A DNA stretch of 63,999 bases, the filler included, from Dimargaris cristalligena (Eukaryota): assembly GCA_003614675.1 (NCBI GenBank). It is 8 parts of 8 records of this genome, joined end to end, with 100 filler letters (N's around TTAATTAATTAA, not from the genome) between each part and the next. Parts side by side here need not be neighbours in the genome. Positions count along the whole stretch, not along the records: positions 16,394 to 24,483 come from ML003360.1; 7 more parts are not named here. The stretch is one strand, 5' to 3'. The translations under genes and the position numbers were made by a program. Shown in pieces: positions 6,001 through 40,859 of the stretch (positions within the stretch are counted from its first letter, which is position 1; every line of letters begins with the position of its first letter). The notes beneath the pieces were generated by a model. That model was not told the DNA's origin and made no database searches. It saw only the letters and a list, made by a program, of their open reading frames with translations.

Positions 6001-7908
6001 TTTAGCCCAGAGTTCATAAACTCGTTTGCCGACCACTACGTGACCATTCTGGAAGCATTGCTTACAGCAGATACCAGTAGTCCTCTTACCGATATCCCTA
6101 TTCTTACCTCGCCTGAACGTGCACGGCTACTAGAAAGCTGGGCCACAAACCCACGCGATACCCCCCGCGTCCTGGCCCACGATCTATTCAAATTACAATG
6201 CGAGAGCATGCCCCACTTCACGGCCCTCACTTACAATGGGCAAAGGTATACCTATGCCCAACTTGATATGGCTGCTAATCGACTAGCTCATTCCATAGCC
6301 CAACGGGTATCCTGTGGGTCCGACCTGATAGTGGCCCTAGTGGCCGATAATTGCCCTGAACTTATTATAGGGCAACTGGCTATTTGGAAGACCGGCTGTG
6401 CGTTTGTGGTTCTGGCCCCTGACTATCCCCTCGAGCGACACCGGTTAATCCTGGAAGACACGGATGCGATTGCCATTCTGAGCAAGCCACCCTGCCTCTC
6501 GGCTCTTGACAGCCTAAGACTGGACATACCCACAATACCAATCGACAATGCTGATCTTTTTGCCAATGGCCCAACTAGTGTTTACCCGTCACCAACCATC
6601 GATCCTTCACACTTGGCCTCAATCATCTACACATCAGGTTCAACTGGTACCCCCAAGGGGGTCATGCACGAGCACCACGCTCTGGCCAACCACTGGCAGG
6701 GCATGGGCAGCATTACGAATATGGCTTCTGGCTCAATCACCCCCACTCTCGTCACGCCTACCTTTGACGTGTCGATGTCCGAAATATGGACCACACTATC
6801 CTTTGGCGGTACCCTTCTGGTAAGCCAAGGAGAGTACGAAAGTGCCCTTGCCCAGGCCACTCGGGCCTGCTGCACTCCTTCGCTGCTCTCTAACTTTGAT
6901 CCGGCCAGTTTCCCCAATCTGCGCCAAGTCATTATCACTGGCGAGTCGGCTAGCCAAGGGATGGTAAATAAATGGGCTAACCGGGTTGAGCTCATCAACT
7001 GGTACGGTCCCACTGAGGTGGCCTGTGGGTCTCACTGGACTCGGCTCCAGGCCAACAGCGAGGTGATACCTATTGGTACTCCACTACCCAACGCCACTGG
7101 GATTATCCTTGACGCCTGCCTGCGCCCAGTTCCCATTGGTGTAGCAGGCCAACTCTACTTGGGCGGCCGCGGCGTGACCCGCGGTTATCTCAATCGCCCT
7201 GAACTTAACCAGGATAAATTTATTTTGAATCCGTTTACGGGTGAACGTATTTACCAGTCGGGTGACCTGGCCCGCTGGTTAACCAATGGTCAAATTGAGT
7301 GTCTCGGCCGGATTGATAACCAGGTCAAGTTGCGGGGGTTCCGCATTGAACTAGGGGAGACCGAGAGTGCTCTTGAACTTCACCCCGCCGTGGACCAGGC
7401 CTGCGTTGTTGTCCAGGATGAAGTCCATTTGGTTGGCTACGTCGTTCCCCTGTCTGGCCAGACAGCCGCAATTCTGGACTCTCTGCGATCTCGTCTCCCC
7501 CACTACATGGTGCCGTCTGCCTTGGTAGAGCTCGCCGAACTTCCCCTGACCCGAGTGGGTAAAGTTGACCGTAAGGCCCTGCCTAGACATAAATTTACAG
7601 CTTGTAATAGCAATGGCGAGATAACCCAGATTAGCCCGGTCGAAGCCCAACTTATTAGTTTAATTGCCGAAACCCTTCAGATTGATGCTAATGCCATCGC
7701 TCCATCAGCCACCTTTTTCCAACTCAGTGGCAACTCACTCTCGGCAATCCAACTAGTATCTTATTGTCACCGGCAAAACCTCGAATTGAGCCTTATGGAT
7801 ATCAACCGGACCAACACCATCGCCTGTCTTGCCAAGTTGGTCTCAACTTCACCCAAACCAGCCGATATATTGATTCCGGAGTTTGAGGATTTCTCGGATT
7901 CTGAATAA
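1..7908 (+). CDS. Multimodular NRPS, 5'-truncated: (T)-C-A-T-E-C-A-T
   Basis: Frame is open from base 1 (SSLCRDRGLHISIAQVF, end of a T domain). C motifs HHALLDAWS and HHALADGWS; A motifs FTSGTTGRPKG/YRTGD and YTSGSTGTPKG; T motifs LGGDSIS and LSGNSLS; E motifs HHFMVDFVSW, LEGHGR, RTVGWFTSIYP, FNYSG. No introns. Confidence 0.97.
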   Translation, partial: SSLCRDRGLHISIAQVFKCSNIIELAECASDQTNLGDTLETHVPTHYEPYSLLGEVGAPSLDMDSLLQEVSSQLKLGMDEITDILPVSRLQLGFLVSTLKDPSSYMVQESFAISGDLDLGRLQKAWHQLSEQHDILRTKFFQPGSLPNHSFLQVITKRCDIEWSIHTDVADDWSSMENTYFATDRQRGFTFEGPLIRMALFTSPSTNPSRHLCFFTFHHALLDAWSQNIVLAQLVDLYHGTEPAPTTQFSSYISYLQNTDQSQLQAFWQAALANAQPTPPIHFPVYAPGSPVCKYGTYNYTLSSNLASLHAFCRQQGITLNSLLRGVWALTLSRYLGESNDISFGVLTSGRNSPVPDVQNMVGMCINTLPFRVLLNLSTTVTNLVQCIHRQSGELTVSEQCGLLDIYKWGQISPETKLFNSLVAYDNFPPSASSTPNPDIIFELHGGQNFTEYAYTVSFLDNGDNLDCHIVFDETHCDDIYACYLVQFIDHCLSMMVNNPSSSINKIMTLPTGEAQRIKQWAQGPLCEFPQGRWLAHQLFTQHVANQPGAIALETTNERFTYAEVYHRSCCIALALQQGGFKPGNLAALLFVKTAGFIFSYLGVLLAGGVVIPMDAANAIDRLDYTFNLLEEPWLLTNCSHSNMLKDSIQFKGDRLLLVDTIDYSCIATHQFQPDTTRSSSDLVYIVFTSGTTGRPKGIPVRHESLVNFVLTSCETTQINSDSRILQTVNISFDGCLLEIFGAFHCGGTLVLQDGDILDTLTRVNTCLLISSMLSAIDPTAYPNLTTVFTGGEAVPVHAAHQWCKHVRLFNFYGPVEITITSHIHQIKVNSLVSIGNPLANIQGHILDDQLQPVPVGVPGELCIGGIGVSTGYWKQPELTVKSFITNPLGPGLLYRTGDLVCWLASGKVQFISRKDFQVKLRGYRIELGEIENTASSVEGITNAVASVSQQQLVLYIAPNSVDTVALRIHLATKLPPYMVPNFIVPLDFIPMTSVGKADRKTLQVRPLPVDTTDEAIATDSLSPTFLLIREALADTLKIGAQRITPPASFLQLGGDSISAIQFSNRCKRLGLRISVADILKHTQLLVMEQYAHLIDSEELAPILYQDPTGPVSLTAVQRYALEEYRFINQFNQSMLLKCRQTLTRTGLIQALTTLMTHHDILRMRLELVHGQWQQRVLPIPTDSASWLRQFFYIEQATLTLDEYPAWVSQIQRSISIEHGPAVICGLLTLDGEQHIYLTIHHFMVDFVSWRIILEDLEALLANQTLPAKTIPFREWATQVHAYAQTLPDSIWPVPPTPVDPIPLDYPLLSGSGQPVPPTVTYHTFDVQRTPLGLTLSNALYTEVAPAVGVSPQEFMIASLLLSLQKTLGISVIGLELEGHGRRPWDSSIDISRTVGWFTSIYPAVFDLNQAQTCLTSSNTLCALALAKQRMRSIPDHGFPYSLQRYLKGTSPLAAPLTDRATPKTVDTPSADWNRVVFNYSGRSEQLEGQDAFWCTRHIEMGWTDDLNRDELFNRALSVACDYNADNGLVFSVMYSSELHHSGTIQRVVNQWRSSLECLMKECQSIPAPLIVTASDFSSATLTESDFSKLVRDDLPVLDLTLADIDDIYPCLPVQEGLLFATLQDPAAYMVQMGFNITGPLNIGQFQKAWEQTAHDHPILRTRLLTAGGCRADKNLQIVAKNFDAHWAIGSWENDPVGTVRDQFFQQERATGFTPDRPWIRFGLFQMASESFKFLVSVHHALADGWSIGLLFQDVCGNYLGGALPKAVPYRDFVHYILDQDLSEAELFWTQEFSGVVEPSLLVQAHHHHSVHDLKPSDAEFYGIVERSGQLLQQINSLISDHGVTLSTLLRVAMAAVLHHHTGSTDPVFGVVVSGRNVPVEGVENIIGACINTIPCRVALGGNPSVRDTLRAVYATSTQAHGFEHCRLTDIHRWSGLGQERPLFNTLLVLENYPEAPDNPELPFKLELDSYWDPTDFPLAAIAHTQGDQLQFRVTYRASDFSPEFINSFADHYVTILEALLTADTSSPLTDIPILTSPERARLLESWATNPRDTPRVLAHDLFKLQCESMPHFTALTYNGQRYTYAQLDMAANRLAHSIAQRVSCGSDLIVALVADNCPELIIGQLAIWKTGCAFVVLAPDYPLERHRLILEDTDAIAILSKPPCLSALDSLRLDIPTIPIDNADLFANGPTSVYPSPTIDPSHLASIIYTSGSTGTPKGVMHEHHALANHWQGMGSITNMASGSITPTLVTPTFDVSMSEIWTTLSFGGTLLVSQGEYESALAQATRACCTPSLLSNFDPASFPNLRQVIITGESASQGMVNKWANRVELINWYGPTEVACGSHWTRLQANSEVIPIGTPLPNATGIILDACLRPVPIGVAGQLYLGGRGVTRGYLNRPELNQDKFILNPFTGERIYQSGDLARWLTNGQIECLGRIDNQVKLRGFRIELGETESALELHPAVDQACVVVQDEVHLVGYVVPLSGQTAAILDSLRSRLPHYMVPSALVELAELPLTRVGKVDRKALPRHKFTACNSNGEITQISPVEAQLISLIAETLQIDANAIAPSATFFQLSGNSLSAIQLVSYCHRQNLELSLMDINRTNTIACLAKLVSTSPKPADILIPEFEDFSDSE

Positions 7909-8099: not shown

Positions 8100-8199
8100 N
8101 NNNNNNNNNNNNNNNNNNNNNNNNNNNNNNNNNNNNNNNNNNNTTAATTAATTAANNNNNNNNNNNNNNNNNNNNNNNNNNNNNNNNNNNNNNNNNNNN
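8100..8199. other. Artificial contig linker
   Basis: N44-TTAATTAATTAA-N44 six-frame stop spacer. Confidence 0.99.
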
Positions 8200-8270
8200 G
8201 CGCAGATGGTTTAGTGGTATAATTACCGCCTGCCACGCGGTAGACCCGGGTTCGATTCCCGGTCTGCGCA
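8200..8270 (+). tRNA. tRNA-Gly(GCC)
   Basis: GCGCAGA/TCTGCGC acceptor stem, anticodon arm ACCGC-CTGCCAC-GCGGT, GGTTCGATTCC T-arm, T-run terminator immediately downstream. Confidence 0.96.
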
Positions 8271-9806
8271 TCTTTTTGAACCATATCCTTTGTGCCGTTC
8301 GGCTTGCAAGTGAGTTGGCACTTTTGGAGAACACGGTATAGTTTTGGGGCTTTGGATTTTCGTGTTCGGAAGGTGCTAGAGAATGCACAAACTATCGGAT
8401 TGAGTTTGAATGGCTTAGTTCCCATATGCCATCCCTCGGGGGCATGAGTAGCTCTTACAATTGAAAGGCCAGCCCCAACTAGTCTAAACATTATTTTGGG
8501 TATTTGACGAGTTTGGGGATACACTGTACCCTATAGGGATTGGAAGTTTTAATACAATCATCTTGGTTTGGGAGGGGAAAAAAGCGAATTTGATAGTCCC
8601 CCCCCACAGGCCTGGCTGTCGCATAGTAATATAGGGGAGTAAGGTCACAACGTTAGTGGACTGTCAGCCTTACAGTTGTTAAAGCCGGCTTAGCAATACA
8701 TCCGATGGACTGGTGACCTTGAAAGAGGTGTATTTGAATAAGTAATGGGGGGAAATAAGTGTTATTGGGGTTGTCGGGCCTTTGCATCAATTGGAGGGAG
8801 AGCGATTTACTAGTGATAAGTTTCTACTCCGATACATTGAATTTACTGAAATCGAAAGGTGAATTTATATGCGTGTTTATGGTTATTCTATTTCTCAGCC
8901 TTCTGTGCCAATGAAAAATAAAATTATTCGCATCGAGTGGCTTAATTATAAATTACCGCAAAGTGACGAGGGCTTTTTAATCCGGGGGCATGGCCAACCA
9001 AGCCAATGTCGAGGAGGAAAGGGGGTGGTGGCTTCATCCAGGGCTTCCCCTATAATAAGTGGTACCCTCATTGAAGTTCCTGTCCCAGATAATCTATCCG
9101 GTCCCTTACCCATGTCCCCGACCCATAAGGCGGGTCCCCTATCCAGCACAGGGCCCATGAACTCCGCCTGGTTTTGGAGATAATCAGGGCCAGATGAAAC
9201 TGGCCAATTAACCCCCAAAGAACCACCATGGTGTTTTGCCTCAGGTTGATATTGTTCAAACCCCGCCAGGAAAGTGGCCAGCCTCTCAATCTAGTGGGCT
9301 CGAGTGCATTGCTACTCGGCTTCTAGAACTCAGTGCCGCCCGTGAAGACAGTATGGTCAGCAAAAGAATTGTTACAAGCCGGCAACTGGAATCGATAGGT
9401 TCATGCCTTTTCAATATTCTTTAAGCAGTAACGCAAACCCATCTCCCGGTCGGGTCCCAGCTGCATAGACCTGGGCTTATTAACCAGCGAGACAGCTAGA
9501 GACAGCGATTGAAAAGAAAAAGGGAAAGGGAGGCCAGGGTAATAAGAAAGCTGCATACTGCTAATAGCTGATGAGCTGAGTGGGAAAGGCTTCTTTGGCC
9601 AACCCACCTCCTCCCATCTGCCTTTAAGCGGTGGGATCCAGTAGTCCTGGCACGACTTACCAGCACCCCCTCTTCTCTTTGTAATGCTTGTCATCTTTTA
9701 GTCGGCCTTTAGCTACCCATCTCCAGCTTTATTCGTTTCTTCTTTCCTCAATCATCATTGTCGCCCTTGACTCTCATCGGAATCCCCTCTACGGCACTTG
9801 CCCACA

Positions 9807-10594
9807 ATGCGCTCACTCGTTCTCCTCCCATTCCTGGCCGGCCTCACTGCTGTGTTTGTGACCCCAGCGCAGCCGCTTCACTTTTATCTCCATAATACTG
9901 AACGCAAATGCTTCCTCGAGGAGTTGCCGAAACATACCGTCGTGACTGGTGAGTGGCCGTGATGTTACAGTCTATCTGCCAATACTAACCTCTTCCTATA
10001 GCTCATTTCATTTAAAACGCTGCTCCAGAATCAAAGCTAACCCACCTGCATGTTTATGACTGACCGTTCGTTCCCCTTTCCCCAGGTCACTTCATCGCCA
10101 AGGAATGGATTGAGCAGGAGAAGCGGTTGATCGACAACCCCTCCATTGGTATCCAGGTCACGGCCATTGAGCTGCCTTCGAACCACGAAATTATGAATCA
10201 GAAGGCCGCCAATCAGGGCAGATTCACCTTCACGTCCGCCATTCAGGGCCAGCACTATGTCTGTTTGCAGGGCAACTCGAGCAACTGGTTTAATCCCCAG
10301 ACCATCCAGGTTGAATACGACATGACTTTCGGTAAGACCGACGCTGATGATAAGGCGGCCGTCAAGCTCGACTCGCTATCCGGCCGGGTGCGGGAGCTCA
10401 ACACTCGTACCAATGCCCTCCAATTGGAGCTGGAGCAGCAACGCGAGCGTGAGGCGGAGTTCCGCGACTTGAGCGAGACCGTCAACTCCCATGTGGTCTG
10501 GTACGTGGTGCTTCAACTGGTGGTGCTTTCGTTGACGTGTGTGTGGCAAGTGCGCTACCTCAAGGGCTTCTTCGAAAAGAAAAAGCTCGTGTGA
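9807..10594 (+). CDS. p24/emp24/gp25L cargo receptor (ERP1-like); exons 9807-9948, 10086-10594; 216 aa
   Basis: Signal peptide, GOLD motif KCFLEELP, coiled coil REREAEFRDLSE, TM helix, FFEKKKLV ER-retrieval tail; GTGAGT..CAG intron keeps frame. Confidence 0.93.
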
Positions 10595-13317
10595 TCCCGG
10601 CCGGCGTAAGTGCGCTCCGATGGCCACCATTTAAGCACTCTCGATCCGCACTTTGGCCAGTGTTGTTGCCCATACTCTATCTTAGCACCACCGCTGACTT
10701 CCAGCCTCTGACCTGCTCCTGCGATTCTTAAATGATTTGCGACCGGGACGTGCTATACAGCAAATTTTTCGCCCGCTCCGTGCTTCTTTATTTCCTACCG
10801 CCCTTACTGAAGTCTCGTAAATATACATGGCGTCTTCGTGCGTCGAAATTGCTCGCGAGTTGAGTGATCGTGGTGGTGGTTACGGAACTTTTTAAATAAA
10901 TTATTGGTATTAAAATAGTCAGCTGCCCATTTTGGCTGCCTATAGATGCTGGTGGGGTCGATATGTGCACACATGAAATTGCTACGTGGTGGTGTCAGAC
11001 ACCTCCAACCACTGTGCCCGGCCGAGGGGGAGGGTATGGTTTTACTGTCAGTGCACTGCATGGACTTATGTGTTTTTAGGCAGCCCCGCCATGTCCACAT
11101 TCCACCACTTGGTGACTGGAGGGCTGGTTGGCCGTGACGAAGGGGCGCCCGCAGTGAAGTGAGAGAAAGAGCCATAATGCTATCCGGCATTTATCAGGGT
11201 GATTCAGCTTATTAGTGAGTAAATGAAAGACGGGGGAGCAGTTCACTACACCAGCTTTGATGGCGGGCGCAGGGTGAGAGAGATGCCCATGCTGCTGCGA
11301 GAAAGAAGCGAAACGAAGACGATGGGTGTGATGGGGGGGATACCTTCAACGGAGGGGAAAATCTCGTCGGGGGCCGGCGACAGGAACTAGGCAGAGAATG
11401 GAGGTCCCAGGCAACATAATCACCTACCGTGGGCTGGGGCGTCCTTAATAGCGCTATTTGGCCTAGGCGAAGAGCGGCGAGGCCCATTAGTCCCGCGCCA
11501 CCAGGTTTGTGTGGGCCTTGGTCTGTATATGCACTGTTGAAATATATGCGCCCTCGCATCGGTACTACTAGCTTCGGATACATACATATATATATATATT
11601 TCAGGGCCTAGGCCTCCTGGTATACGGTTCTCCTCTCCCATTTACCTCTCTATGTTATAATAATCCAACCTGTAGTTATTTCCATTAATCTTTTAAAACC
11701 AGCAGCGATTCACCTGCTGCGTAGTATCTGCCTCCGGCAACTTGACCTCGTGAGCGCCTTGTAGGGTCTTCGACTCTCTCTCTCTCTCCTCCTTTCTCCA
11801 CGTTATTACTTGAAACCTACCCCTTTCGTTTAAGTATCTCAGGGTAGTCTCTGTCCAATAGGGCTTTGCGTGTAGTAGCTTCGGTTTCGTTAGTGCAATT
11901 CGGGGTCCACCACCTCCTGCCTGCTTTTAGTTTCAACGTCGCAACGACAAGGCCTTCTTCCCTACTACCTACGCACCTTGGCCCTTCCGCCCATTCCGAG
12001 CCCAGGCGGTAGCAACCCTCGCTCGGCGCCTAGTCCCGGCCGGTACAGAGCACCGTGCGACTACATAACCCTTTAACCCCTCCCAGTGGCCGTGTTTCAT
12101 TTGGAGGAGCTGTCCCAGGTCGCCCCCGTTGTGCATGCGACCCCTCGCTCATACTTAGTGGGTCTCAGTTGGCGTTTCGCCTTGTATTTCCTTTGTGAAG
12201 GGGATAGTAGTTTTATAGACTTATTGTTAAGCTTTTTGGGCACAGCGAAAGCGGGCTCCAGCTCTTCTCATCCCGTGTCTTTTTTGTTCCCCTTTTCCTC
12301 CTTTATCTTGTGTAGTTCCCTCTCTCCCTCCCCCCTCTTTCCCCCCCTCCTCTAACCCTTCACGTATTGGGCGATTCTCATTGAGGGCCCGTCCATCTTA
12401 TCCCCCCCTTCTTGCTTCTCCGCTCTTTGGCGGTTATTTTTTTGTTTGCAGTTGCCCCATTCACCCTTGCTTTGGCTCCATCCCCCCGCCCGTTCCGTCG
12501 TATATTCCGTCTTTAACCATTCTTTAGCTTTCTTTCCCTAATCTCTCTCTAACTCACTGTACCTATAGAACCCGAGCGTTCGTTTTAATTTTTTCGTTTC
12601 ACTTCCTATCGGAGCCCTTGGCTGTTGCACCACCTTTGTTTCCCCCTCGTTTATTCCATTTGCTACCTCATATACCCCCACCTATATCCCCCCTGTTCTC
12701 GACCCTTGGCCGTGTATCGCCTACTATCTTCGGTAGTTAACAATTGTCTAGTTCGGGTCGGTTTCCCTTCTAATTTTAGTCACTTGTAAAGCCGAAGTGA
12801 GCCGCGGGTACCGTGTTTAGTGTGTGCAGCCCAACCGGCCCCTATTCTACTTTTCCCTGAGGTAAGCATTCCCTAATCCACCCCTTGCCCACATACCCGC
12901 TCAACCCCGAGGTCCCCTCTCTATTATTCTTCTCGTGGCTATACGCCGTGAGAGGTTGGTATTTGCGGCCTACCCGCTACTATCCCTGCTCCCCACCATT
13001 CCTATTATTGAACGGGATCGCGCTTTAAGTACGAGCTTGTTTAACTCGGCTCTCCAGCCGAGGGGGGCACATACGCCACCGTCTAGGTTGAACAAGGGGC
13101 GAGTTTGGATGCCGTTCCTAGGAGGGGGTATAACCAGATGCCTCGTTTTGTGTAATTCCCTTTCTCGGTCCTAGCGAACCCTCTCTCCCTGTATGGGCAG
13201 CGCCCCTCGCCTCACCTTCCCTTTCTCACCACCCCTTTCCAGCGGCTGTTACCCCCTCCCCTTGAATAATATACATTCCCTCCCTTATTAGTACGTCGGA
13301 CCCAAATTCCAACCAGC

Positions 13318-15148
13318 ATGGGGTTATGCATGTCCCTTGACGACTCCGAGGAGTCCGCCCGGAGCGCTGCCATAGATAAAATGATCGAAGAGGACCGGAG
13401 TAAACTATCCCGGGAGTGCAAAATTCTGCTTCTCGGCAGCGGAGAGTCCGGCAAGTCGACCATCGTAAAGCAAATGAAGATCATCCACCAAAACGGCTAC
13501 ACGCTCGAAGAACTGGGCCTTTTCCGGATGACCATATACAAGAACCTCATTGACTCCGCACAGGATCTTATCCTCGGCATGAAGCGAATTGGTCTGCATC
13601 CCCAACTCAAGCCAAATCGGGTAAGTGTCTCGTGCCGCATTCACTATCTTCCACCCCTTGGGTTCTAGTTCCAGCCGCCTGCTCCCCAGATTATACCTCC
13701 TTCCTTAGGACCCCGGTATCCTAAGCCATGAGCCGTTATTTAATTGGTTTTCGAGAAAGGCACTGCCCTCGGCGGGTCGGTATTAACCACGGCTTACCCC
13801 ACTCACGCGTCTTCTCCTTCGCTTTGCCATTGTTCATTTGTTGCTCTACCATTGCCGTATTTAGGATTTTGCCTCGGTGCTTATGGAATATCGAATGGGC
13901 AATGCCTTCACTGTCAAGCTCCCGACCGAGCTTGTGGCGGGTATCGAATCCCTGTGGCATGACCCGGTAATACCGAAGGTCATGGATCGGTCCAACGAGT
14001 TTTATCTTATGGACTCTGCGTCTTAGTAAGTGCTTTATCTTATTTTCCTCCCTCCCTTAACTTCCGCTCCAATCACTCCCCTTTGGTGCTGGCCAATCCC
14101 CGGTTCCGGCTCAATCGCATGCCCATCCCCTATTTGCTGGGTTATCTATTAGCTGATGATGATTACTCACCTCCTCCCCAATCGCTTTACCCTCAAATGC
14201 ACCGTCATTGTATTTGCGAACTATATAACCCCCCTTAATAGCTTCTTTAATAATGTCAAGCGGATTGGCGAGACCAATTACGTACCAACCGAAGCCGACG
14301 TATTACGAGCCCGATCGAAAACCACGGGTATCATCGAAACCCGGTTTAATATGGGCCTACTTAGTATTCAGTAAGTCGGCATTCCAAACTACGCCAGCAG
14401 CGGAATACTTGGCACTCTATTTTGCCCCGTTCATCTTTCCTCCCCTGCCGCCAATTTTAATCCACTAACCTCTTCCACTTTCCACCTCTTCCTATTTTTA
14501 ACATTCACCCGGCTGATGATGAACCCTGTCACCAGCATGTTTGACGTAGGCGGTCAGCGGTCAGAACGTAAAAAGTGGATTCATTGTTTTGAAGGAGTAA
14601 CCTCCATTATCTTTTGTGTGGCCCTCAGCGAATACGATCAGGTTTTGCTGGAAGAATCAAAACAGGTAAGTTATCAGGACCTGGGTTAATACTCGGCGTA
14701 ACAACTGTCTCTTCTTTTGAACCACTGTTCGCCATCCCCCATATACAACTAGTATCTAATTTGTTTTTACCTAACCCCACCTTTTTTTTTCGTTCACTTT
14801 GCTTTGTAGAACCGGATGGAAGAAAGTCTTGTCCTCTTTGGGTCAGTCATTAATAGTCGGTGGTTTTTACGGACATCGATTATCCTTTTCCTCAATAAGA
14901 TTGACCTTTTCCGGGAGAAGATCCCCAAGATTCCCCTTAGTCGGATCTTTCCTGAGTACACTGGTGGACCTGATGTCAACAAAGCGGCCAAATATATTCT
15001 ATGGCGGTTCACCCAAAAGAACCGTGCGAAGCTGTATATTTACCCCCACCTCACACAAGCTACCGACACTTCCAATATCCGGCTAGTCTTCGCGGCCGTT
15101 AAGGAAACCATTCTACAGAACGCTCTAAAAGATTCGGGTATACTATAG
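13318..15148 (+). CDS. Heterotrimeric G protein alpha subunit, fungal group III (cAMP pathway; Gpa2/GNA-3-like); exons 13318-13620, 13865-14025, 14242-14370, 14536-14665, 14810-15148; 353 aa
   Basis: MGLCMS lipidation start, [40 protein letters not shown]-terminus [11 protein letters not shown]; four GT-AG introns splice in frame. Confidence 0.96.
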
Positions 15149-15902
15149 GTGCCTTATGGGGCTGGAGTTTAATCCCGCCTTTTGGTTTACCTATAATCCC
15201 TACTTGGTCTATAACTGGGGCGTACCCTCCCCTATACCTTACTATATCTCACCCTTCTCCAAAACTAATAAAGCCATCCATTACCTTTCTTCCCGCGTCT
15301 CACTTTCGGTTGCGTTTGCTCGGCCCACTTGCCTGCCATTCCAATTAGGTTATTTTTGCCATTAATATGATCTACGCACGATTGTCATCTTGCCGTGGTG
15401 TATCACTATTTTTCAAGCTATACTTTCAGCTATACGGTTATGTTGATGATATGCCCAACCCACTCGTGTTTAACCTACAGTCAACGTTCATCGTTTTACC
15501 AGTTGTTGATACCACCGACCTTCTATAGAGTTACATGTTTTGCTGGTCAATTGTCCATCTTGATGACCCCTACCCTTATTAAAACTATAGATTTCACTAT
15601 TTGAATTTTGGTGAATTAACATTGGTATGGTTGGGATTACCTAAGTGTGACTTGTTACCTAAACAGTGGCCTTTAGTGAGCAGAAGAACGGCTGGGCAAT
15701 AAAGCGAACAATAATGGGGTGCTCAGCTGAATTAAAGGGTCCATTGCAATGGTCCCGTGTTATAGAGTATATAATTCTACTACTAATATTAAAGTTATGT
15801 GCTTGAGTGAATGAATGTCGGGGATGACCCTAAACCGACCGACTGTATTCTGGGACTCACTGACAGTATTCGTGAATAGAATTATTGTGCATCGTCGAAT
15901 TA

Positions 15903-16046
15903 ATATGGAAGAAATTCAAACCAGCTGTATAAGGTTTTACATAATACATGTATAGACGAATATATACAAGAATATCTTTTAACCAGTAATCTTGGCCTCA
16001 TCCAACGGATTTTTAGTTTTACAGCCTGAATGAACTTCTCCCATAT
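15903..16046 (-). mobile_element. MITE family A, complete copy
   Basis: Imperfect TIRs ATATGG(G/A)AGAA(G/A)TTCA..CTGTA; aligns by eye with 42016-42158 and 49385-49518. Confidence 0.8.
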
Positions 16047-16079
16047 TGTAAGGCAAAGGGCATGATGATAAAATGGATT

Positions 16080-16150
16080 TACGCAGACCGGGAATCGAAC
16101 CCGGGTCTACCGCGTGGCAGGCGGTAATTATACCACTAAACCATCTGCGC
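16080..16150 (-). tRNA. tRNA-Gly(GCC), second copy
   Basis: Reverse complement identical to 8200-8270 except one C>T in the acceptor stem (G1-U72 pair). Confidence 0.95.
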
Positions 16151-16293
16151 TACATGTTTTTGTTGTGGTGTGGCAGAGCGACTAATATAATAATAGGCGA
16201 GAATGCCTTATTGTCAAAAGATATAATAAAATCGGACTCAAGATAACTGTAGGCAAAACTGCCGGTACAGTTCAGAAGAATGAAAAAAGAGAT

Positions 16294-16393
16294 NNNNNNN
16301 NNNNNNNNNNNNNNNNNNNNNNNNNNNNNNNNNNNNNTTAATTAATTAANNNNNNNNNNNNNNNNNNNNNNNNNNNNNNNNNNNNNNNNNNNN
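16294..16393. other. Artificial contig linker
   Basis: N-TTAATTAATTAA-N spacer. Confidence 0.99.
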
Positions 16394-16604
16394 GGAAGAC
16401 TCTCATGGGAACTGGAAGAGTCTTGGATCAGCAAGTTGAGTGTTTGGGGTGCAAAGCACTGGGGTCAAATGGGCAGGGTTATATAATAAATAATGACCCC
16501 ATAGTACCGGGGGGTGACTATGGGAAGGTTAATAGGGTACTATAAGGCCTAATAAAGATGGGTGATCATTAGGTCTGGATTAAGTCAGATTAGGAGGGCC
16601 GACA
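16394..16604 (+). mobile_element. LTR family B, terminal fragment cut by contig start
   Basis: Matches the end of 57407-58275 and of revcomp 62810-63393 (CTATAAGGCCTA..AGTCAGATTAGGAGGGCCGACA). Confidence 0.75.
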
Positions 16605-16720
16605 TCCCCTTATTATTATCTATAAAGCACCCTTTATATCAACTGCTTGTGTATTATCTCTTGTAAACTCGTCTAAGGCATAGCTATTTAACCATATCTT
16701 GGATTATTGCCTACGACAAA

Positions 16721-16809
16721 TACTACTAGTTGAAAATAAACACCCTGCCGATTTTCCCGTATACATACCAGTTTAATACATTTACAGCCAAGCCAAACTT
16801 TGCCCATAT
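16721..16809 (+). mobile_element. MITE family A, partial copy
   Basis: TACTACTAGTTGAAAATAAACA...GCCCATAT matches the right half of the copy at 32773-32919. Confidence 0.65.
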
Positions 16810-17250
16810 GTTTGTTGAACTATGTCATCCCCCCCCCCAAGTGTCATCTACCATATTGGGCATTTGGAGTGATCATATTAATCGAAAACATGTCAAATAA
16901 ATACCACTGCAGAGTGCTTAATTATCTCTTTGCAGATCTTCCTTCTTTTTATCTATTTCGGTATAATATCCTTTGAGAGAATCTGCGGTTATCCCAATAA
17001 TATATAGGTATCGATCCCCCCTATTTTCCATCATAGTATGCCCCCCCCAATGTACTTACTAGTGAACGTTGTCGCATTTGTATCGGTTCATTAATATTTT
17101 CAAACATACACCATTCATTTAACGGTGACATTACAGTATTATGGCCAATTAATGTGGTTCACTGTTCTTTATTTTTATTTTCGGTTTTGTTTCCGCCAAT
17201 ACTCATCAACTGTTCACCTTCATCAATATCATTTAAGCAGCTATCCTAAA

Positions 17251-18573
17251 ATGCGTATGTTCAAACCAGTCGATCTTGCCTTGGCATTTTTCTCCCTAGT
17301 CCATGCCTCTGAAGTACGCAATTTCGAGTTCAATCTAGATGACCACATCAACTATATTGATGATTTTCCGCTTAGTACTGACGACGCTGGCACTAGTACT
17401 GTCCTAGAACCTCTCATCAACGATCCAGCACTCTTTGGGGCCAGTTTTCATATAAGTCAATTAGACTGGAGTGGGCTAGAACAACTCATTGACGCGAACA
17501 AGTAGATCATGAATGATAGTGACGTCAACGAGCTCCCCAAAATAGAAAAATATCCTGACGTAGACTACCCTGGCAATCAACTCGCGTCAATCGGAAGGTT
17601 TTCCTATTCAGAGGAAAGCAGCCTATATGGTATGATGAACACCGGTAGTTATCAAGGCAGTCCCGTCATAGACCCAAAGTTGCTTCGCGATCAGTCTGGT
17701 ATAGATTGGGATCCTGCTGTTGCAAGTATATTGGATCCTGGAGATTATTCGCTCCTGCGACAAGTAAAGGAAGCAGCGGAAATTGATTCCAACGGCCAAC
17801 ATTACCAACAACCCCCGCCTGCGGAACCCATTCGCCAGGACAATCACTCAGTAATGCCCAACAAGAGGAAGCTACTGGTCAGTGATCCAGTTGAAAGTTC
17901 AACCACGGTCCCGTAGCAACACAGGACGGTTTTAAAAACACCGTTTAAAAAGACGCTTCACATTTGTGGGGAATGTCTTCGATCCTTCGAGTCTCCCCAT
18001 CACCTCGAATATCATAAGCGAATACACAACAGAGAGAGGCATATTCCCTGTCAGAGTTGCTCTAAATCGTTTCGACGGAATAATACTCTCAAAACGGATA
18101 AGCCCATGCACTCTGTGGAAAATTATTTTATCAGTCAGATTTGCTTTAAGGCGTTTCGACGGAATAATGAACTCAAAGTGCATATGCGAGCACACACTAG
18201 GGAGAGTCCTTTTAAGTGCAATGACTGCTCTTTAGCGTTTAAACAGAAAAATGCCCTCAATTTCCATATCCTAAAGCACGCCAAGGAAAAGCCTAATACC
18301 TGCGATCATTGCGAGTAGGGGTTTGTTTGGAGGAGTAGTCCCTCAGAGCATGGAGGAGGTCGCCATGGGGAGTAGCTAATCACTTGTGATTACTGTGAGC
18401 ATTCATCTACGAGTCTTGGCAGCATAAATCACCACTATATAATATATACATATATATATATATATGTGTGTGTGGAACCCATTCAATTATTTGAATTTAA
18501 TAAATATCACACTACACACCGCACTCGTCTTATCCGGAGTCCCTCAATAAATAAATACATTTTAGTCTTGTAA
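17251..18573 (+). pseudogene. Signal-peptide-bearing multi-C2H2 zinc-finger gene with four in-frame TAG codons
   Basis: One continuous frame: MRMFKPVDLALAFFSLVHA, acidic region, PNKRKL, then fingers CGECLRSF..HKRIH, CQSCSKSF, ICFKAFRRNNELKVHMRAH, CNDCSLAF..HILKH, CDHC, CDYC. TAG at 17503, 17914, 18316, 18373; some zinc ligands degenerate; true 3' end uncertain. Confidence 0.75.
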
Positions 18574-19072
18574 TTAGAGCTATTACGATGATGGTTTTTC
18601 ATGGATAATAAATATACCAGGGCTTAATCATCCCCAGCGATAAGTCCAGAAACCATAAATAACATGGCCTACTGATCACCCTCTATAGTGAATGTGGTAG
18701 ATAGCTTTAGAAATTTGAATGTCCCTAACATTCTTCACCTGAATAATAGGAAATACGGAATAACAGTTGGAGGTACACCAGTTCGCAATATTGAAGGTAT
18801 AAATTAGACGATAAAACGCGAGGTCTTCCTTAATCAACCTAAGACGATATTGAAAGAGAAAATGAGTCGCCAGTATCAGGTATATACCCGTGGTTGGTTT
18901 TGTGGACAAAGATTAAATATACGGTCAAGTTAAATTGGCACAGTGTGTTGTGCCGCAGCCTCAAGCGGATGATACTCATATAACTCTTCAATTTATTCAT
19001 TTATTTCCTGTATACCATATGCCTGCTTAGATTTTGCTCTTCGGAACAAATACAATGCTGTTCAACGGTACA

Positions 19073-19205
19073 CACGGGTGAAATTCGGCCCAACTGTATA
19101 AGGCTATAAATGCTGTGTGTAGGGGAAAATGAGCAGTTCATTTATTTTTAAGCTGCTGTATTTGCCTCATCCAATAGATTGTTCGTAAACAACCCAGTGG
19201 ATTTG
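19073..19205 (-). mobile_element. MITE family A, degenerate copy
   Basis: GGGTGAAATTC..CAACTGTATAAGG...GCCTCATCCAATAGATT resembles 15903-16046. Confidence 0.55.
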
Positions 19206-20400
19206 AATAGTGTAAGAACACGCGGCCAGTGAATCGTTTTCTGTTCCCGTTTTTAGGGGGATCCTATAGCTGATATTAAGGTGCCTCACAGTCCTACCGT
19301 ATCTGGTGGTCGAATAAATGGCAATAGATCTAGATTATATAATGACATTCCACTTTTGCTTTCCATAAACAGCTGTTCCGATACTACAACTGCCGTAGTC
19401 GCGATCCTGAATTAAAGTCTCATGGCTAGATAATACGGTGATGAGTTCTACTGGTGGGACTGCGGCTCTTTAGGCCTGTGACTTACTCTTGCTTAGTCAA
19501 CGTTTACAATTGCTTAAAAGGTCGATTTGATTGGAGGCGACGATGCTTTGGAGCAGTTAAACTTAGGGCTTTGGGGCTTGCTCTTTAGTATCTGTGGCCC
19601 TAGGGGTTTGAAGGTAACACAGAGTGCCTTTGGCTGGCTATTTATCACTCGGAGAATACAGAGACGAAATGTATACAGGAGAACGGGCTCATTAACCCCA
19701 TACCGAATCAGTTCATTGAATGGATGGGCCATAACCTCCCATCCCTCCCCCCAATCCGCAATCCACAATATACACACCCGGCCCTATTTTCACCCAAACC
19801 AAACCAACCCCATCTCATACACCGTTGTTTGGTATGGCCGATTGGGTATAATTGCTCTACCGAATTTAAGCGGATGGGAAGGAACTAAGGCATGTCTGGT
19901 AGATAGGGGAGCTTGCCATTCAAATGCAAATCTAAAGGTGCAAAGCACTGGGTGTGAGTGAGGGGGGGACTCCTCCCCCTATCCGCAACAATGCATCGAA
20001 ATCGCCAATGCGACGCCCCTCCGAAACCCATCACTATTCGCCAGACTGGTCAGAAGCTGGACACACCGGAACACATTGTCCCACTTACTCAGCAGGTAAA
20101 AGGGTACTGCGATTACTATATCTGGATATATATATATATAGGCATTGGGGAAGACCGACCCTCCTTCCCCTTGTTAGTCATACCCCAGTGTCTTCGTGTC
20201 TTATATACCTGCTCTCGTTTAATCACGGTTCCGTACTTGGTGAAACCTGTTTCATCAATCTCAGCTACTATTAATTTTATTCATCATTATCAACTAGAAC
20301 CTGGATTACTCTAGCTCTATCACCTTTCTCGATCGAATTTCAACTTTCCTACTTAGCAACCACCTCCCCCCCGTTCCCGCTCATCAACCTCGCCGCCCAA

Positions 20401-21008
20401 ATGTGTATGCGTACCACCTGTTCGGAGTGCAATAAGCCCACCTATAAGGGTTGCGGACGCCATGTCGAGCAAGGTAGGCCTTATAGCCCAGTTCATGAGG
20501 GAATTTATCTCTGAAGTAGCCGGAGGGAAATCGGTGGACCCACGACTTTCTGGGAATACCATAACGATATCCGGTGAAGGCGGTGTTTGATAGGAAGAGG
20601 CCTCCATAAAACCCCGCGGCTATAGTCTATCCATCGAGTAGTCGCCCGCTTACCTCGACTCCCCTATAAAGCTACATGGCTAATCGTATTCACCAACTAC
20701 GGACTCTATAATAACCTTACAACTGATTGGCCTCTGATTAATCCATATCCATATTCGCTTCATTCTCGCGTCGACCATATACCTCCGCCCCTGCGCCCAT
20801 TCCTCATGGTTGTCATTTTGCGTTGCAACGTGTAGTCCTCGGCGACGTCCCAATGGAACAGCGCTGCCACTGCCGCGAGGATCAGGCCAAGAAAGGCGCT
20901 ACTGGGGCTAACCCTACGCAATCGACGGGTGAGTCCATAGTTGGCAAAATTGCCATGGCGGCCATTGTTACTGGCCTTATTTACGCGGTTCGCAACTTTC
21001 TTCTCTAG
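20401..21008 (+). CDS. 81-aa Cys/His-rich protein with C-terminal hydrophobic helix; exons 20401-20473, 20836-21008
   Basis: Spliced product MCMRTTCSECNKPTYKGCGRHVEQVLGDVPMEQRCHCRE...IVGKIAMAAIVTGLIYAVRNFLL; GTAGG..TAG phase-1 intron; recognisable CxxC-K-T-GCGxH-CxC pattern. Confidence 0.8.
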
Positions 21009-22003
21009 GATGCGATGGAGTGTTGGTAATATATGTGCAGAATGACTAGGCGAGATGGGGGTGGACAATACGGTTTATAAGTTTGCCTTCACCCAACCTC
21101 CCCTGCTGCAGATCTACCACGTCTACACCCTGCTCTGTGGACTTTCGGTTTGTCCATTCCCTAAATATATATATAATTATAGCAAGCGAGTATGGGCATG
21201 TGAAAGGCCGACTACATCAGATAAACGGATACATCAAACATTTGGGCGTAATTGGGGCAGCAATTTTCCCCATCTTTAATGGTGTGCTGTTCCCATTGCC
21301 CCAATCGCCAGTGTATATTTCTGGATATATTTTATGATGCCAATACTGCTTATAAAAATACAACTCGGTTTTATTAAATGTTAGTGTCATTTCTCACCCT
21401 CCCTGGCCTACCTATACCCACAATCATGCGAATTTGGGCAATCCATCAACCTTTTCAACTTATCTAATGACGAACCTTCTATTTTTGTTTGTTTCATTAT
21501 GGATTTGAATATTGCCTCATCCGCGATTGGTCTGAATATCGTTACTTCGCTCGTGGTGTCTCATTATCTCTCCCCGTCCCCATCCCACAGTGTCCCCCAA
21601 AGCCTCCACTGAACAACAACAAAAGCAGCAGCTGCCACAACAACAAAACTAAGGGTATATTCACCAACTCGCTCAGTTGAAAGCCCTGTTTAACGCGCAT
21701 TAGGTCCCTTTCTGCGAATATTTTTGTGGTCCAAATAAAGACCATTGGTCTTAGCACCCATGATCGCAGACCCCATTAAGCATCAACACTGTATTTTGAA
21801 AAATCACACCACAATACACCCACTCGCGGTCCATTAGACCTAGCCCAATTAATAGGTAAATAAATTCATTAAATTAGTAATGAATTATGCCAGTGCTCTA
21901 AATGGTTTAGACAGTCTAGCCCCACTCGCCAATCTAGGGTGGTCGTGCCATGGGTATTTTAGGGAAACCGGCAATGTTATTATGAGCAGCCTGTGATTTT
22001 GTT

Positions 22004-24261
22004 TCAAGATGCGCCTATGTGGGAGGGAGTAATGTTCCGCCAGTGATTGATGATTTGGGAATTGCTCGACTGAAATGACCATGTGATACAATAGTGATCC
22101 CCTAGAAGGTTGAATTCTTCCAGCTCGTCTAAGAATTCCAATCGATTAATTCTATTGCCGGATAGGTACCAGCGTTGGATAATCGAAGTCGCGGAAATAA
22201 TACAGACCAGACGGATCAGTCGAGGGTTAAGAATCATAAACACGTACAAAGGGCCAAGATAAGTTGGTGGTATATTAACACTAGTGATCCGAGGTGTGTG
22301 GGGAGGGGGGCATCCTGGGAGCCGATGGAGGAGAAGACGGCATTCTCAGTAAAGTGGGGCAACACCTCGTAAAATCCGCCAGACTATGTATGGAGGAGTC
22401 CCAGTTGCCAAAGAGCTGTGCCAATAGGCCCTGCTAAAGATAATCATATAAAACTAACAGCCCCGGTCGGGGCTACTTACCTCTGTATTTCGGACACTGG
22501 AAGCTCTCTGTGAAGCTGGGCTATGCTCTTTGAGTTGGCCTGTTGCCAACCCAGACTTAAATACCTTTGACGCTGGCTCTCTAGGTCCGGGTAAGTTGCA
22601 ATACTGTGCAGCTGTAGGCCGCGCGACTGAATTTGAGAAATAAACATACGCGAAGAAAATGCCCAATATTTAAAAAAAGATAATTTCAGAAATTAAGCGC
22701 AATGAAAATGTTGCGTTAGACTACGGTGAAGGGGAGGGGTGACTTCTTATAGCAAATAATGGTGAGGGGCTATAATACTGCCTGGCAACGCTAACGTACC
22801 TGAAGGTTCTGGGTCATCATTTGGCCGAACGCATCATGGGGCTGAATCTGCTCGTAGGTTACGAAAAAGGCCGAAGGCCACTGTTGGCTGACCGAAGCGA
22901 TAAGGCGATCGGAAAACTGGGGGTCTAAATAAATCAGGACACACTCGGATAGAAACAAAGTGGGCACGTCTGATCGTAGGCCCGTCTCGAGTAGGCGAGG
23001 TACAATGTCGCTTTCAAATTGACGAAGGTCTCCGGCCAGGATAGTATACTGGTCGGAGTAAAGTTCAGCCCCACCACGACCTGGGAGATAGTTGGGCAAA
23101 AAACAGAGTCATGGTGGTAAATAGATTTGAACGCCAGTGGGTTAAATAAGATGGGTTGCTTTAAATGTAAATAGGTATATAGGGTTGGTAGATAGATGGG
23201 ATGCAATGGTGCCAGCTGAATAGGTTGATCACCGTAAAGTAAATATAAGGTCTACTTACCGGTTTGGCAGCCCTCGGGCAACAAACTCCGTAGTCGGCTG
23301 TTCCGGTGGAGTTTCATGCATTTGACCGAAGTGATTTCCGGAAAATCAATCTCAACGAAACGGGTCGGTGCATAGTCAGTCTCCTGAAGTGCAGTCCCAA
23401 TGTTTAATAAAATAATGCCACATAGTGAATGGATGGTGGTGGGTATGGAAGATGCCAATCTTCTATTGATCGATATTTGGCGGAGGTATATTATCTACCG
23501 TATGTAAGTAGGTAAAGATGGCGGGTGACCTGGGTCGATTATATTCAACTGACCTTGAGGAGAAAGTAGGTGGTGTCCGACCCTGAGCCAAGCACTACAA
23601 TTTGCGATGATAAGTCACACTGTTTACAGGCCCGGAGAAACTGCTGGATTACGTTTTGGATACCAATGAACCGACAGTAGGATCCTAGAGACGGAATAGG
23701 TGTCGTTAATTGACCCAGAAGAATAACATCACCCCACCCAGGGGTTGAATTAAGAATTGGTGGTTGGAACATTCCTCGAGCGGGTTTCCATACGACTCAT
23801 TGTCGCCTGAGTCAGATTCTATGGCACATAGCTGGATAATGGGTGGAATGGGAAAGAGGGGGGCTGCTATGGCGCACAAAGGCGACTGATATAGAACGGC
23901 GGACTGGCTTACCTCGATTAATAACTGGTGAGCGGCGTTCGGCTCGCTTGACGAAAAGCGGGATAAAAGGGTCAGCAAAATAACCCGCTTTACTCGCTGA
24001 GCTGGACGATTCGGATGGTGAATAGCCCCGAGTTTATAGGGAGGTGCAGGAATCGCTTAGAATGGCAGAAAAATTGTTATACACCCTCGACTTGACTTGG
24101 GCTGCTTGTTGGCATTCCCCTGGCCTGCGGGAATCCATGGGACTAGGGGATGGAGTGTGGTAGTCTGCGAATGTGGGGAATGGCGGTGGCACTTACCAGC
24201 GACTGACGGCGGCGTCGTCATTGGTGGCACGAATGTGAACGTCTTCACCTGCGTACTCCAT
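22004..24261 (-). CDS. PPM1: Leucine carboxyl methyltransferase 1 (PP2A methyltransferase); exons 24261-24197, 24001-23913, 23684-23554, 23383-23260, 23080-22800, 22626-22481, 22151-22004; 327 aa
   Basis: ATNDDA, GYFADPF, RRSPVINRGSY, QIVVLGSGSDT, EIDFPE, PTLFLSECVLIY, YEQI..DAFGQMM, LEFLDELEEF..HYC; all junctions GT-AG and in frame. Confidence 0.94.
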
Positions 24262-24483: not shown

Positions 24484-24583
24484 NNNNNNNNNNNNNNNNN
24501 NNNNNNNNNNNNNNNNNNNNNNNNNNNTTAATTAATTAANNNNNNNNNNNNNNNNNNNNNNNNNNNNNNNNNNNNNNNNNNNN
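24484..24583. other. Artificial contig linker
   Basis: N-TTAATTAATTAA-N spacer. Confidence 0.99.
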
Positions 24584-40300: not shown

Positions 40301-40514
40301 GGAGCGAATTGAGGTAGCGGTGGGCGAGGGGGATATCGCGATTGAAAATAAGGCCCTTTAAAGCCCGGGTGGAGTCGTCAAAAGAGTTGGGGGTCGTGTC
40401 GATGGATGATGGTTCAGGGGAAATCTGGCGGTGAACGAGGGTGGGTCGGGATTGGACCCCCGCGAGGGTCCCGATAAAGGCCACGAGGAGAGTGCACCAC
40501 AAAACGGCTCGCAT
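37344..40514 (-). CDS. 1056-aa secreted low-complexity repeat protein
   Basis: Long intronless ORF with signal peptide MRAVLWCTLLVAFIGTLAGVQS; Ser/Pro/Asn-rich; internal repeats; TATA box near 40742. Confidence 0.8.
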   Translation of the reverse strand: MRAVLWCTLLVAFIGTLAGVQSRPTLVHRQISPEPSSIDTTPNSFDDSTRALKGLIFNRDIPLAHRYLNSLHRIEQGRNLVGVAPNDPYFLTPAQLAIVEEDWDPRDARRVIQWSMLGSRKEWAKQQTLGRSANLASRFAGRYGSKAAPSTATTTTLGSSDGAATDEEKNKKKAEASQPSWTQRIKQQTVGRAANWAGQWSDKYAGYNKHWNPSWTNASISSDSDSDSGSGSGSDSSSDSANSGNGGSADNGDGNDGRRGYGTSGPTFEGAPPIPQAYPGQYPPQPPTDPFYAPTGNDGYNYDNSQSSNGVFVGPPPHQMYPPYPNQNSGYPQMPSHQQPSHSRTFPPQQAYGRGSDHDSNMYSDENAPLLPKNEQWRYSRPPTSLFSAPVGSDGYNHDNSHSSNGVSGGPPPLPVRPLQLVQNTNQPQMSSHQQPSHSRTIPLQQAYGSGSNHDNASIYTGSEGGNDDSSMYADDNLPPFHQNEQWKYSRPPTNRFSAPAGNDGYNHDNSHGSNGVSGGPPPLPVRPLQSVQNTNQSQVLPYQQPTDSRYIPTRQVDDSGGNSGSNSDNDSTYSRSEVGSDVSSTYADQSMPLLPKEDDQLQYPHLLTAIYPNTVGNGVDDSGSDDGSDGMPGTPHTHPPTDPLQLVQNSDRSSSPPPKPPRHQINPSQQANSSSSNGGAEGEDDATAGTHYEETTFVPPSEEAPVNYTDPNRKQTNFSERPSITPPPLFMPQPRVPMAGLDWLRPDWTPEVPAHPEREPSVTFQQQQLPPPPPPSPHLHSWAADSENLGVEDSSSSSTPPALLNSGPPAPAPNQVYSNQRKSKLKAIEEEDEESEEEEEVEAEDKLPVTEVKAVEVEPEIMSVVDSPSTYYSSISQQPGQTIPFSQTHPADLPSSSAGSLSSSSSSNSVFQFPPPLVVSAFPYLTGPSNVPPRRATPPTPPPHTVPFGAGDYDATLPPPPTPPPHTVPFGPGSYDTSPPTPPPHTVPFGTGNYDTSLLVNSAAVASGSGHPKKTVIFADPLSEDIPSPLSPPSEPSSTASSVVVRDIPQAISFD
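38560..39640 (-). repeat. Coding tandem repeats, 3 units plus a degenerate one (periods 288 and 330 nt)
   Basis: GxDGYNxDNSxxSNGVxxGPPP recurs at nt ~39607, 39319 and 38989. Confidence 0.85.
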
Positions 40515-40859
40515 GGTGGTGGTGGTGATGATGATGATGATTGTTTTGGGGAGTGTAAGAAAAGTTCAAAGAGCTGGTTTGTCAAAGAGGAGCTATACAA
40601 TTGAGAGAGATATACAATTATATATATATATATATGTATATAAGATTGGAAAAATGTCAATCAGAAGAGGGAGAGAGTGTCTGTTGAAATCCCGAATACT
40701 GTGCAGTTATTAGTAAAAACAGATTGACAGGGCTGCCTTTTTATATATAATATGGAGTGGATTATTATAAGGCTGAAACGAAAGTGGGGCTATCGGGGGG
40801 GGGGGGGGGATTTCGCGATTGAAAATAAGGCCCTTTAAAGCCCGGGTGGAGTCGTCAGG

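Follow-up and report, generated by a model that had tools for sequence, protein, structure and literature searches.

Does the stretch at 17251-18573 (+) hold one gene in which a signal peptide, an NLS and an array of C2H2 zinc fingers are joined, and, if it does, what could the product of that gene be? The question was raised by the original prediction, made on the window (the whole stretch of 63,999 nucleotides of DNA that was analysed), in which the locus was taken for the relic or the member of a family secreted by a haustorial parasite to reprogram host transcription. The features on which the answer depends are collected in Table 1.

One reading frame with four internal TAG codons

The translation of 17251-18573 (+) is one uninterrupted frame with four internal stops, all of which are TAG. 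The original prediction, that the separately listed ORFs and the gaps between them form one reading frame without frameshift, was therefore right. In the portion 17251-18441 this frame contains 4 stops, while the remaining five frames contain 17-32, and 2,000 base shuffles of the same portion gave a mean of 21.7 stops with a minimum of 9. An open frame of this kind is far beyond chance, and the difference between 4 stops and the 17-32 of the other frames indicates that the zinc-finger frame was under coding constraint until recently.

Contigs from 4 DNA runs, belonging to 2 studies, were compared with the window over positions 16400-21400. Among the contig differences listed for these 4 runs and 2 studies, none was at any of the four TAGs. 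Since the TAGs are present in the contigs of two studies, we concluded that the stops are real DNA. The contig of an independent run covering 16575-18432 has 3 differing letters, of which 2 are among the differences listed: 17321 A>G, which changes Asn24 to Ser (N24S), and 17507 T>C, which changes Ile86 to Thr (I86T). Both of these polymorphisms placed in the gene are residue-changing.

Table 1. Features of the zinc-finger locus and of its surroundings, in window coordinates
Feature	Position	Strand	Basis or remark
Stop-to-stop ORFs in one shared frame	17095-17505, 17506-17916, 17917-18318, 18376-18573	+	ORF listing
Upstream in-frame stretch, 21 codons	17188-17250	+	Ungapped alignment to the N-terminal extension of P0005/P0010
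Signal-peptide-like leader, 19 residues (1-19)	17251-17307	+	Read by eye; kept in P0005, P0006 and P0010
Acidic region, holds TAG no. 1	17308-17856	+	0 Pfam families; homologous to P0006, P0009 and P0010
TAG no. 1	17503-17505	+	G before; aligned residue is Gln in P0006, Val in P0009
Middle ORF	17509-17913	+	Library protein P0004, 135 residues, 100% identical
Basic patch PNKRKL, NLS-like by eye	17857-17874	+	Sequence read
TAG no. 2	17914-17916	+	G before; aligned to Lys in the second basic cluster of P0005
Finger 1 (F1), complete C-x2-C-x12-H-x3-H	17959-18027	+	Homologue of the one finger in P0005
Finger 2 (F2), Asp for first His	18043-18111	+	Sequence read
Finger 3 (F3), Ser for first Cys; still Pfam-matched	18124-18195	+	Sequence read, Pfam
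Finger 4 (F4), complete	18211-18279	+	Sequence read, Pfam
Finger 5 (F5), all ligands, H-x4-H spacing, TAG no. 3 inside	18295-18366	+	Sequence read
TAG no. 3	18316-18318	+	G before; two residues past the second Cys of finger 5
TAG no. 4	18373-18375	+	G before; linker of fingers 5 and 6
Finger 6 (F6), Tyr for last His where (TA)n starts	18379-18447	+	Sequence read
(TA)n(TG)n microsatellite over the 3' end of the finger array	18436-18475		Period 2 called at 18436-18465
High-copy dispersed repeat, upstream	16400-16900		Summed contig depth 10^4 to 2x10^5, against 16-163 over the gene
High-copy dispersed repeat, downstream	19072-19238		Depth 2000-4300; contig joints connect about 16554-16767 with 19076
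NRPS frame, 2635 codons open	1-7908		Condensation, AMP-binding and PP-binding domains (Pfam)
p24/emp24 gene	10064-10591		Pfam
G-alpha gene, three exon-like ORFs	13270-15145		Pfam
tRNA-Gly(GCC)	16080-16150	-	tRNA scan, Rfam
Unannotated ORFs	19518-20311
Leucine carboxyl methyltransferase fragment	about 22794-23108	-
Sec14/CRAL-TRIO gene	49993-51498		Pfam

An acidic region, a basic patch and a decayed finger array

Behind the hydrophobic leader, which ends in VHA as had been claimed and is treated below, the frame reads into an acidic region; a hand count gives 13 D/E against 2 K/R in residues 20-84, in agreement with the original prediction. The region was modelled at pLDDT under 50. The basic PNKRKL is present where it was expected. 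In P0005, a relative described below, the counterpart of PNKRKL has a second basic cluster, KRPRK, behind it; the window copy shows this cluster in a decayed form.

The original prediction counted about six C2H2 fingers. By the criterion of C-x2-4-C-x12-H-x3-5-H spacing, six units are indeed readable, but only three of them, F1, F4 and F5, have all four zinc ligands, and F5 carries a TAG; F2, F3 and F6 are each short of one. The zf-C2H2 HMM search called for in the prediction was positive, with three zinc-finger profiles above their curated cut-offs in 17917-18315: zf-H2C2_2 (E 5.8e-15, 55.1 bits, cut-off 40), zf-C2H2 (3.4e-11, 43.4 bits, cut-off 25.2) and zf-C2H2_4 (5.1e-10, 39.6 bits, cut-off 27). 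No Pfam family was matched in the other three ORF pieces of the frame. A structure model, for which the input alignment comprised just 5 sequences and the mean pLDDT was 39.1, is confident for finger 1 alone (pLDDT 72, 92 and 90 in 10-residue blocks), where it predicts a helix along with two short strands; the remaining finger units are under pLDDT 50. The contigs of two runs break at the microsatellite that lies over the 3' end of the array.

A small family of relatives

A 221-residue N-terminal query, in which X was set at the TAG, was run by HMMER in an exhaustive scan against 1.84 billion representative proteins, with E up to 0.001. Seven proteins matched. P0004 is the window's own middle ORF, and P0007 (1846 residues, repetitive) and P0008 (531 residues, with internal repeats) match short stretches only and were rejected as unrelated. 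The colinear relatives are P0005 (211 residues), P0006 (192), P0010 (129) and P0009 (116), and beyond these four no relatives of the N-terminal 220 residues were found among the 1.84 billion representatives. A profile search of a 5.8-billion-protein library, over lengths of 63-510 residues, returned only P0005, P0010, P0009 and P0004 from 4,769 candidates. The locus can thus be regarded as a member of a family, as had been proposed, with colinear relatives of which three out of four keep the leader, and its architecture is no product of chance. P0005, P0010 and P0009 are named by their source as hypothetical proteins of Dimargaris cristalligena, and two of them bear one locus-tag prefix, which indicates that they come from the same assembly and are therefore paralogues. 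The suggestion of a haustorial parasite fits these sole named relatives: Dimargaris cristalligena is placed in Kickxellomycotina, and the Dimargaritales are described as parasitising fungi by means of an appressorium and a haustorium (PMC9866270).

The most informative relative is P0005, whose single gene model comprises the leader, the acidic part, the basic patch, the KRPRK cluster and one C2H2 finger; the finger matches zf-C2H2 with E 1.3e-4 and 22.7 bits, under the cut-off of 25.2. When P0005 was aligned to the window by tblastn, it was colinear at 17185-17397 and 17638-18051, with its residues 1-70 matching 17185-17397 at 54.9% identity (E 1.4e-16). Because leader, basic patch and finger are joined in one model of P0005, the 5' part and the fingers belong to one unit, and the proposal that had treated them as a single gene holds on this point.

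An intact protein with both leader and finger array was not found in the searches over proteins of 218-695 residues, of 63-510 residues and, with the fingers only, of 96-307 residues. The whole-protein search (218-695 residues) gave only two generic C2H2 proteins, P0002 and P0003, which align to the finger part with 29-35% identity over 35-40% of the query, and the finger-only search (96-307 residues) gave zero matches. With P0005 as query, the protein atlas returned generic C2H2 clusters only, with a recognition value of 1848, below the mark of 2300. All four relatives are short models of 116-211 residues with differing start and end points. To judge from these sequences, either all copies of the family may have decayed, or what misled the annotation of the window copy may have misled theirs as well.

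A probable pseudogene

We concluded that 17251-18441 (+) is quite probably a single-copy, fairly recently inactivated pseudogene of a small lineage-specific Dimargaris family with leader, acidic, basic and finger parts. It is considered a pseudogene because it has four stops, three fingers short of a zinc ligand, a decayed second basic cluster and a microsatellite in place of the end of the array, and because both polymorphisms placed in the gene alter the residue; these lesions bear out the part of the original prediction that called the locus a relic. Translation from the conserved Met would stop after 84 residues. Given this early stop, the three later TAGs, the ligand deficiency of three of the six fingers and the microsatellite at the 3' end, no DNA-binding protein is possible, and an intact frame joining leader, basic patch and fingers is not present in the window copy. 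The copy is single within the window, and the contigs are continuous with unique flanks. Four nonsense changes and 2-3 ligand losses would fit one modest dose of neutral change. The library entry P0004, read in the same light, appears to be an annotation artefact from a piece of the pseudogene, and this separate entry for the middle ORF is worth correcting.

The leader and the translation start

The leader begins with two basic residues, which are followed by an apolar core of 12 residues and by V-H-A and then Ser. The core of the window copy includes one Asp, whereas the cores of P0005, P0006 and P0010 are free of any charge; in these three relatives the leader ends in A-R-A or T-R-A, followed by Ser-Glu-Glu. 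Judged by eye, the leader is signal-peptide-like, and secretion is putative.

C2H2 proteins are overwhelmingly nuclear, and another origin of the pseudogene has to be weighed here, namely that it is what remains of an ordinary C2H2 transcription factor of the nucleus, in which the hydrophobic stretch was no secretion signal, translation started elsewhere and nothing was exported. The annotated start of P0005 and P0010, which lies 21 residues farther upstream than the leader Met, speaks for this, as does the fact that the corresponding stretch is kept in frame in the window (17188-17250), where it shares 10 of 21 residues with the extension of P0005 without a gap (hand count). The frame is moreover open up to 17095 and contains an in-frame ATG at 17152, although in a poor context (T at -3), and the Met at 17509 is kept in P0006 and P0009. 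On the other hand, an ATG is absent from the window at the codon that matches the first residue of P0005 and P0010, while the leader-initial Met, whose ATG at 17251 has A at -3, is the sole start common to the window, P0005, P0006 and P0010. In each of these four sequences the leader is built in the classic three parts and has small residues at both -3 and -1. Together with the next 25 or so residues it is also the best-conserved part of the family (63-71% identity, against 30-44% overall, by hand count). If the N-terminus were the longer one, the apolar stretch would still lie inside the first 41 residues. The stretch at 17188-17250 may be a 5' leader or an alternative N-terminus.

Ordinary multi-finger C2H2 transcription factors (Pfam PF00096, PF13465) have tandem fingers and seven-residue linkers, which are likewise seen in the window. 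Unlike them, the window locus has a leader of signal-peptide build that is conserved among paralogues, and its canonical linker motif is decayed. Taking both sides into account, we regard an origin from such a factor as unlikely, though as one to be reckoned with.

Why are all the stops TAG?

The stops of the pseudogene show a pattern that was noticed post hoc and of which each element is weak by itself. The chance that all stops are TAG is about 0.010-0.016, again a post hoc figure, when it is computed with simple one-step models of mutation that differ in their transition bias and GC-to-AT bias. All four TAGs are preceded by a codon ending in G, a letter that makes up 0.20 of the third positions, and there is no frameshift along 1.2 kb of frame. 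A low ratio of indels to substitutions is known from mutation-accumulation work in yeast, and such a ratio would make the missing frameshifts unremarkable. The TAG-only, G-preceded and frameshift-free pattern is a little unusual for decay at random, and a gene with bypassed TAGs would fit it as well.

Several explanations of the stops were tried and rejected. RIP is not indicated, as TpA/ApT and (CpA+TpG)/(ApC+GpT) were 0.77 and 1.16 at 17001-18000 and 0.87 and 1.20 at 18001-19000, with a negative composite index, whereas RIP is marked by a high first and a low second ratio. As to an altered code, when TAG, TAA or TGA is taken for a sense codon, this locus is the only one in the window where pieces are joined into a long frame; elsewhere ORFs are merely extended or overlapping frames opened, and the NRPS frame of 2635 codons has zero TAG. 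Introns over the stops do not account for them either, because homology or finger spacing runs on through every TAG, which takes the place of one residue; a GT is found at 17502, without an acceptor at a workable distance.

There remains the proposal that the gene is live and that its four UAGs are bypassed, by A-to-I editing to UGG, by a suppressor or by readthrough, so that full-length protein is made under particular conditions. The four TAGs, the zero TAA and TGA and the lack of any frameshift are what it would lead one to expect, and a known system gives it a model: in Fusarium and Neurospora, A-to-I editing turns UAG into UGG in sexual development, premature-stop-correction (PSC) editing acts on UAG only, and F. 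graminearum is described as having 71 such pseudogenes with 77 sites, whose TAGs often arose from non-Trp codons (PMC10776026). Like the window locus, PSC pseudogenes have an ORF broken by TAG alone and otherwise in frame. However, the editing system, as described in PMC10776026 and PMC11156358, is confined to filamentous ascomycetes, and the TAGs of the edited pseudogenes arose within Sordariomycetes, whereas the named relatives of the window locus are assigned to a Zoopagomycota fungus (PMC9866270), a lineage in which that editing system is not known. At the two comparable sites the relatives have Gln or Val (site 1) and Lys (site 2) and not Trp. When the surroundings were folded locally with three flank sizes, one of the four in-frame TAGs fell in a hairpin loop each time and two more with some of the sizes, a placement no better than that of the 16 out-of-frame TAGs. 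A suppressor tRNA was not found in the window, whose only tRNA genes are two for tRNA-Gly(GCC), and an Rfam search of 15000-20000 gave tRNA only. The missense losses of zinc ligands and the 3' microsatellite would persist after any bypass, being beyond the reach of editing, and four readthroughs in series would presumably leave almost no product. We consider bypass highly improbable. If it were true, it would be a case of recoding in a fungal lineage where none such is known. Slighter still are the prospects of its combination with export, in which the family would be secreted into fungal-host nuclei and the window locus would itself be live, with its G-preceded UAGs bypassed and its expression limited to a stage.

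Genomic setting

The window resembles fungal nuclear DNA, and several of its genes were recognised (Table 1). In window order, the zinc-finger locus sits between the G-alpha gene and the unannotated ORFs at 19518-20311, in a 4.4-kb AT-richer stretch with a GC content of 0.40-0.42. Paired runs of 44 N, which have the look of masking rather than of biology, occur about every 8190 bases.

The high-copy repeats on either side of the locus, two weak colinear direct matches (15911-16017 and 19080-19186, 3169 bases apart in window coordinates, with 73-78% identity and E values of 0.02 and 0.08) and the several fragmentary paralogues might suggest that the ORF degenerated from a transposable element or another kind of repeat and does not belong to a host gene family, but this is very improbable, as the coding part is at single-copy depth in contigs continuous with unique flanks, the window has no second copy, the frame gave no match to a transposase, integrase or reverse-transcriptase family, and the exhaustive scan yielded only 4 relatives.

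Resemblance to secreted C2H2 effectors and meaning for the family

With the locus taken as a decayed member of its family, the further question is what an intact member would do. It would encode, in this order, a cleavable-looking leader, a probably disordered acidic region, one or two NLS-like patches and tandem C2H2 fingers. The leader would direct the growing chain into the ER, with cleavage after the small-x-small site, and the mature protein would consist of the acidic, probably disordered region, the basic patches and the fingers. An exported protein with an NLS and a DNA-binding domain would make most sense in a nucleus other than that of its producer. To go by the build of their leader, intact proteins would enter the secretory pathway, and they would act in a nucleus, which by analogy with the MoHTR proteins would be that of the host. 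Secretion of intact family members is possible, although we hold it to be rather doubtful, and targeting of the host nucleus is more doubtful than secretion.

Such a protein would not be the first of its kind. The statement in the original prediction that C2H2 DNA-binding proteins normally lack signal peptides proved too strong, since Magnaporthe oryzae has nuclear effectors of the C2H2 type that are described as secreted (PMC7672089, PMC10189765). In the account of PMC7672089, this fungus has 20 secreted proteins with DNA-binding domains, half of them C2H2, and MoHTR1 and MoHTR2, which have a signal peptide and a C2H2 domain, accumulate in rice nuclei; MoHTR3 is presented as a small secreted C2H2 protein (PMC10189765). 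The architecture of MoHTR1-3, namely an N-terminal secretion signal, an NLS and a C2H2 DNA-binding domain (PMC7672089, PMC10189765, PMC11555045), matches that of a signal-peptide-like leader, an NLS-like patch and fingers proposed here, and both they and the Dimargaris family are lineage-restricted and come from a biotrophic or haustorial fungus. They differ in that MoHTR1-3 belong to Ascomycota with a plant host and the Dimargaris family to Zoopagomycota with a presumed fungal host, and in that the window locus has a six-unit finger array, a long acidic region and a broken copy. The likeness is one of architecture.

The literature search returned no paper that, to go by title and abstract, ties Dimargaris to effectors of this kind, which the secretome tables for Kickxellomycotina may nevertheless list, and none in which mycoparasite, C2H2 and nuclear effector occur together. 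The kind itself, a secreted C2H2 protein with a nuclear role, is known; the novelty would lie in a multi-finger form from a mycoparasite of the Zoopagomycota, with a fungus as the host acted upon. The locus itself is best seen as a dead copy, and the effector reading as a precedented hypothesis about the family. Being a pseudogene, the window copy by itself adds little, and the family would be more telling if an intact member exists. Effectors of haustorial fungi that parasitise other fungi have hardly been described, and the family, if real, would be a concrete candidate for the manipulation of a host nucleus outside plant pathology, in parallel to the MoHTR proteins of Magnaporthe.

Repeats flanking the pseudogene

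The C2H2 zinc-finger pseudogene lies between very-high-copy dispersed repeats, at which the contig depth (summed over the assembled contigs of the DNA runs) ranged from 10^3 to 2x10^5, compared with 16-163 in unique sequence. Contig joints connected approximately 16554-16767 directly to 19076, as if these parts adjoin in other copies of the repeat.

Other features of the window

The features located in the window are summarized in the table. The NRPS frame, which ends with a TAA stop codon, contains four Condensation, two AMP-binding and two PP-binding stretches; in an excerpt of a published study, D. cristalligena is described as rich, for its phylum, in predicted secondary-metabolite genes (PMC9866270). 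Paired 44-base N runs recur with a spacing of about 8190 bases (8100-8199, 16294-16393, 24484-24583 and onward); they look like masking and not like a sequence feature.

Features located in the window
Feature	Position	Strand	Remarks
Multi-module NRPS, open frame of 2635 codons	1-7908	+	5' side truncated by window start
tRNA-Gly(GCC)	8199-8272	+	Adjoins N mask
tRNA-Gly(GCC)	16080-16150	-	
Very-high-copy dispersed repeats	16400-16900 and 19072-19238		Flank pseudogene locus; from contig depth
Middle piece of pseudogene	17509-17913	+	In protein library as separate 135-residue protein P0004
1073-codon ORF	37347-40565	-	No Pfam match
1050-codon ORF	43349-46498	+	No Pfam match

Counted from its first Met, the 1073-codon ORF begins with a textbook-looking putative signal peptide, and the leader is followed by a Ser/Pro/Gly/Asn-rich region with internal repeats of about 90 residues and by Pro-rich C-terminal repeats; the product is possibly secreted, as a cell-wall or mucin-like protein. 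The 1050-codon ORF lies where the GC content of the window is highest (44-46 kb has a value of 0.64). It encodes a Pro/Ser/Ala-rich protein that includes a block rich in Gln and ends in a short segment resembling a coiled coil.

Annotated fragments and relatives of the pseudogene

As a stand-alone protein, P0004 is likely to be an annotation artefact. The colinear relatives of the N-terminal part of the pseudogene, P0005, P0006, P0009 and P0010, are all short gene models of 116-211 residues, and the points at which they break off in the shared architecture differ from model to model. P0010 is near-identical to P0006, and the two begin to diverge 4 residues before the site aligned to the first TAG of the window copy. 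The paralogous loci may carry interruptions like those of the copy in the window.
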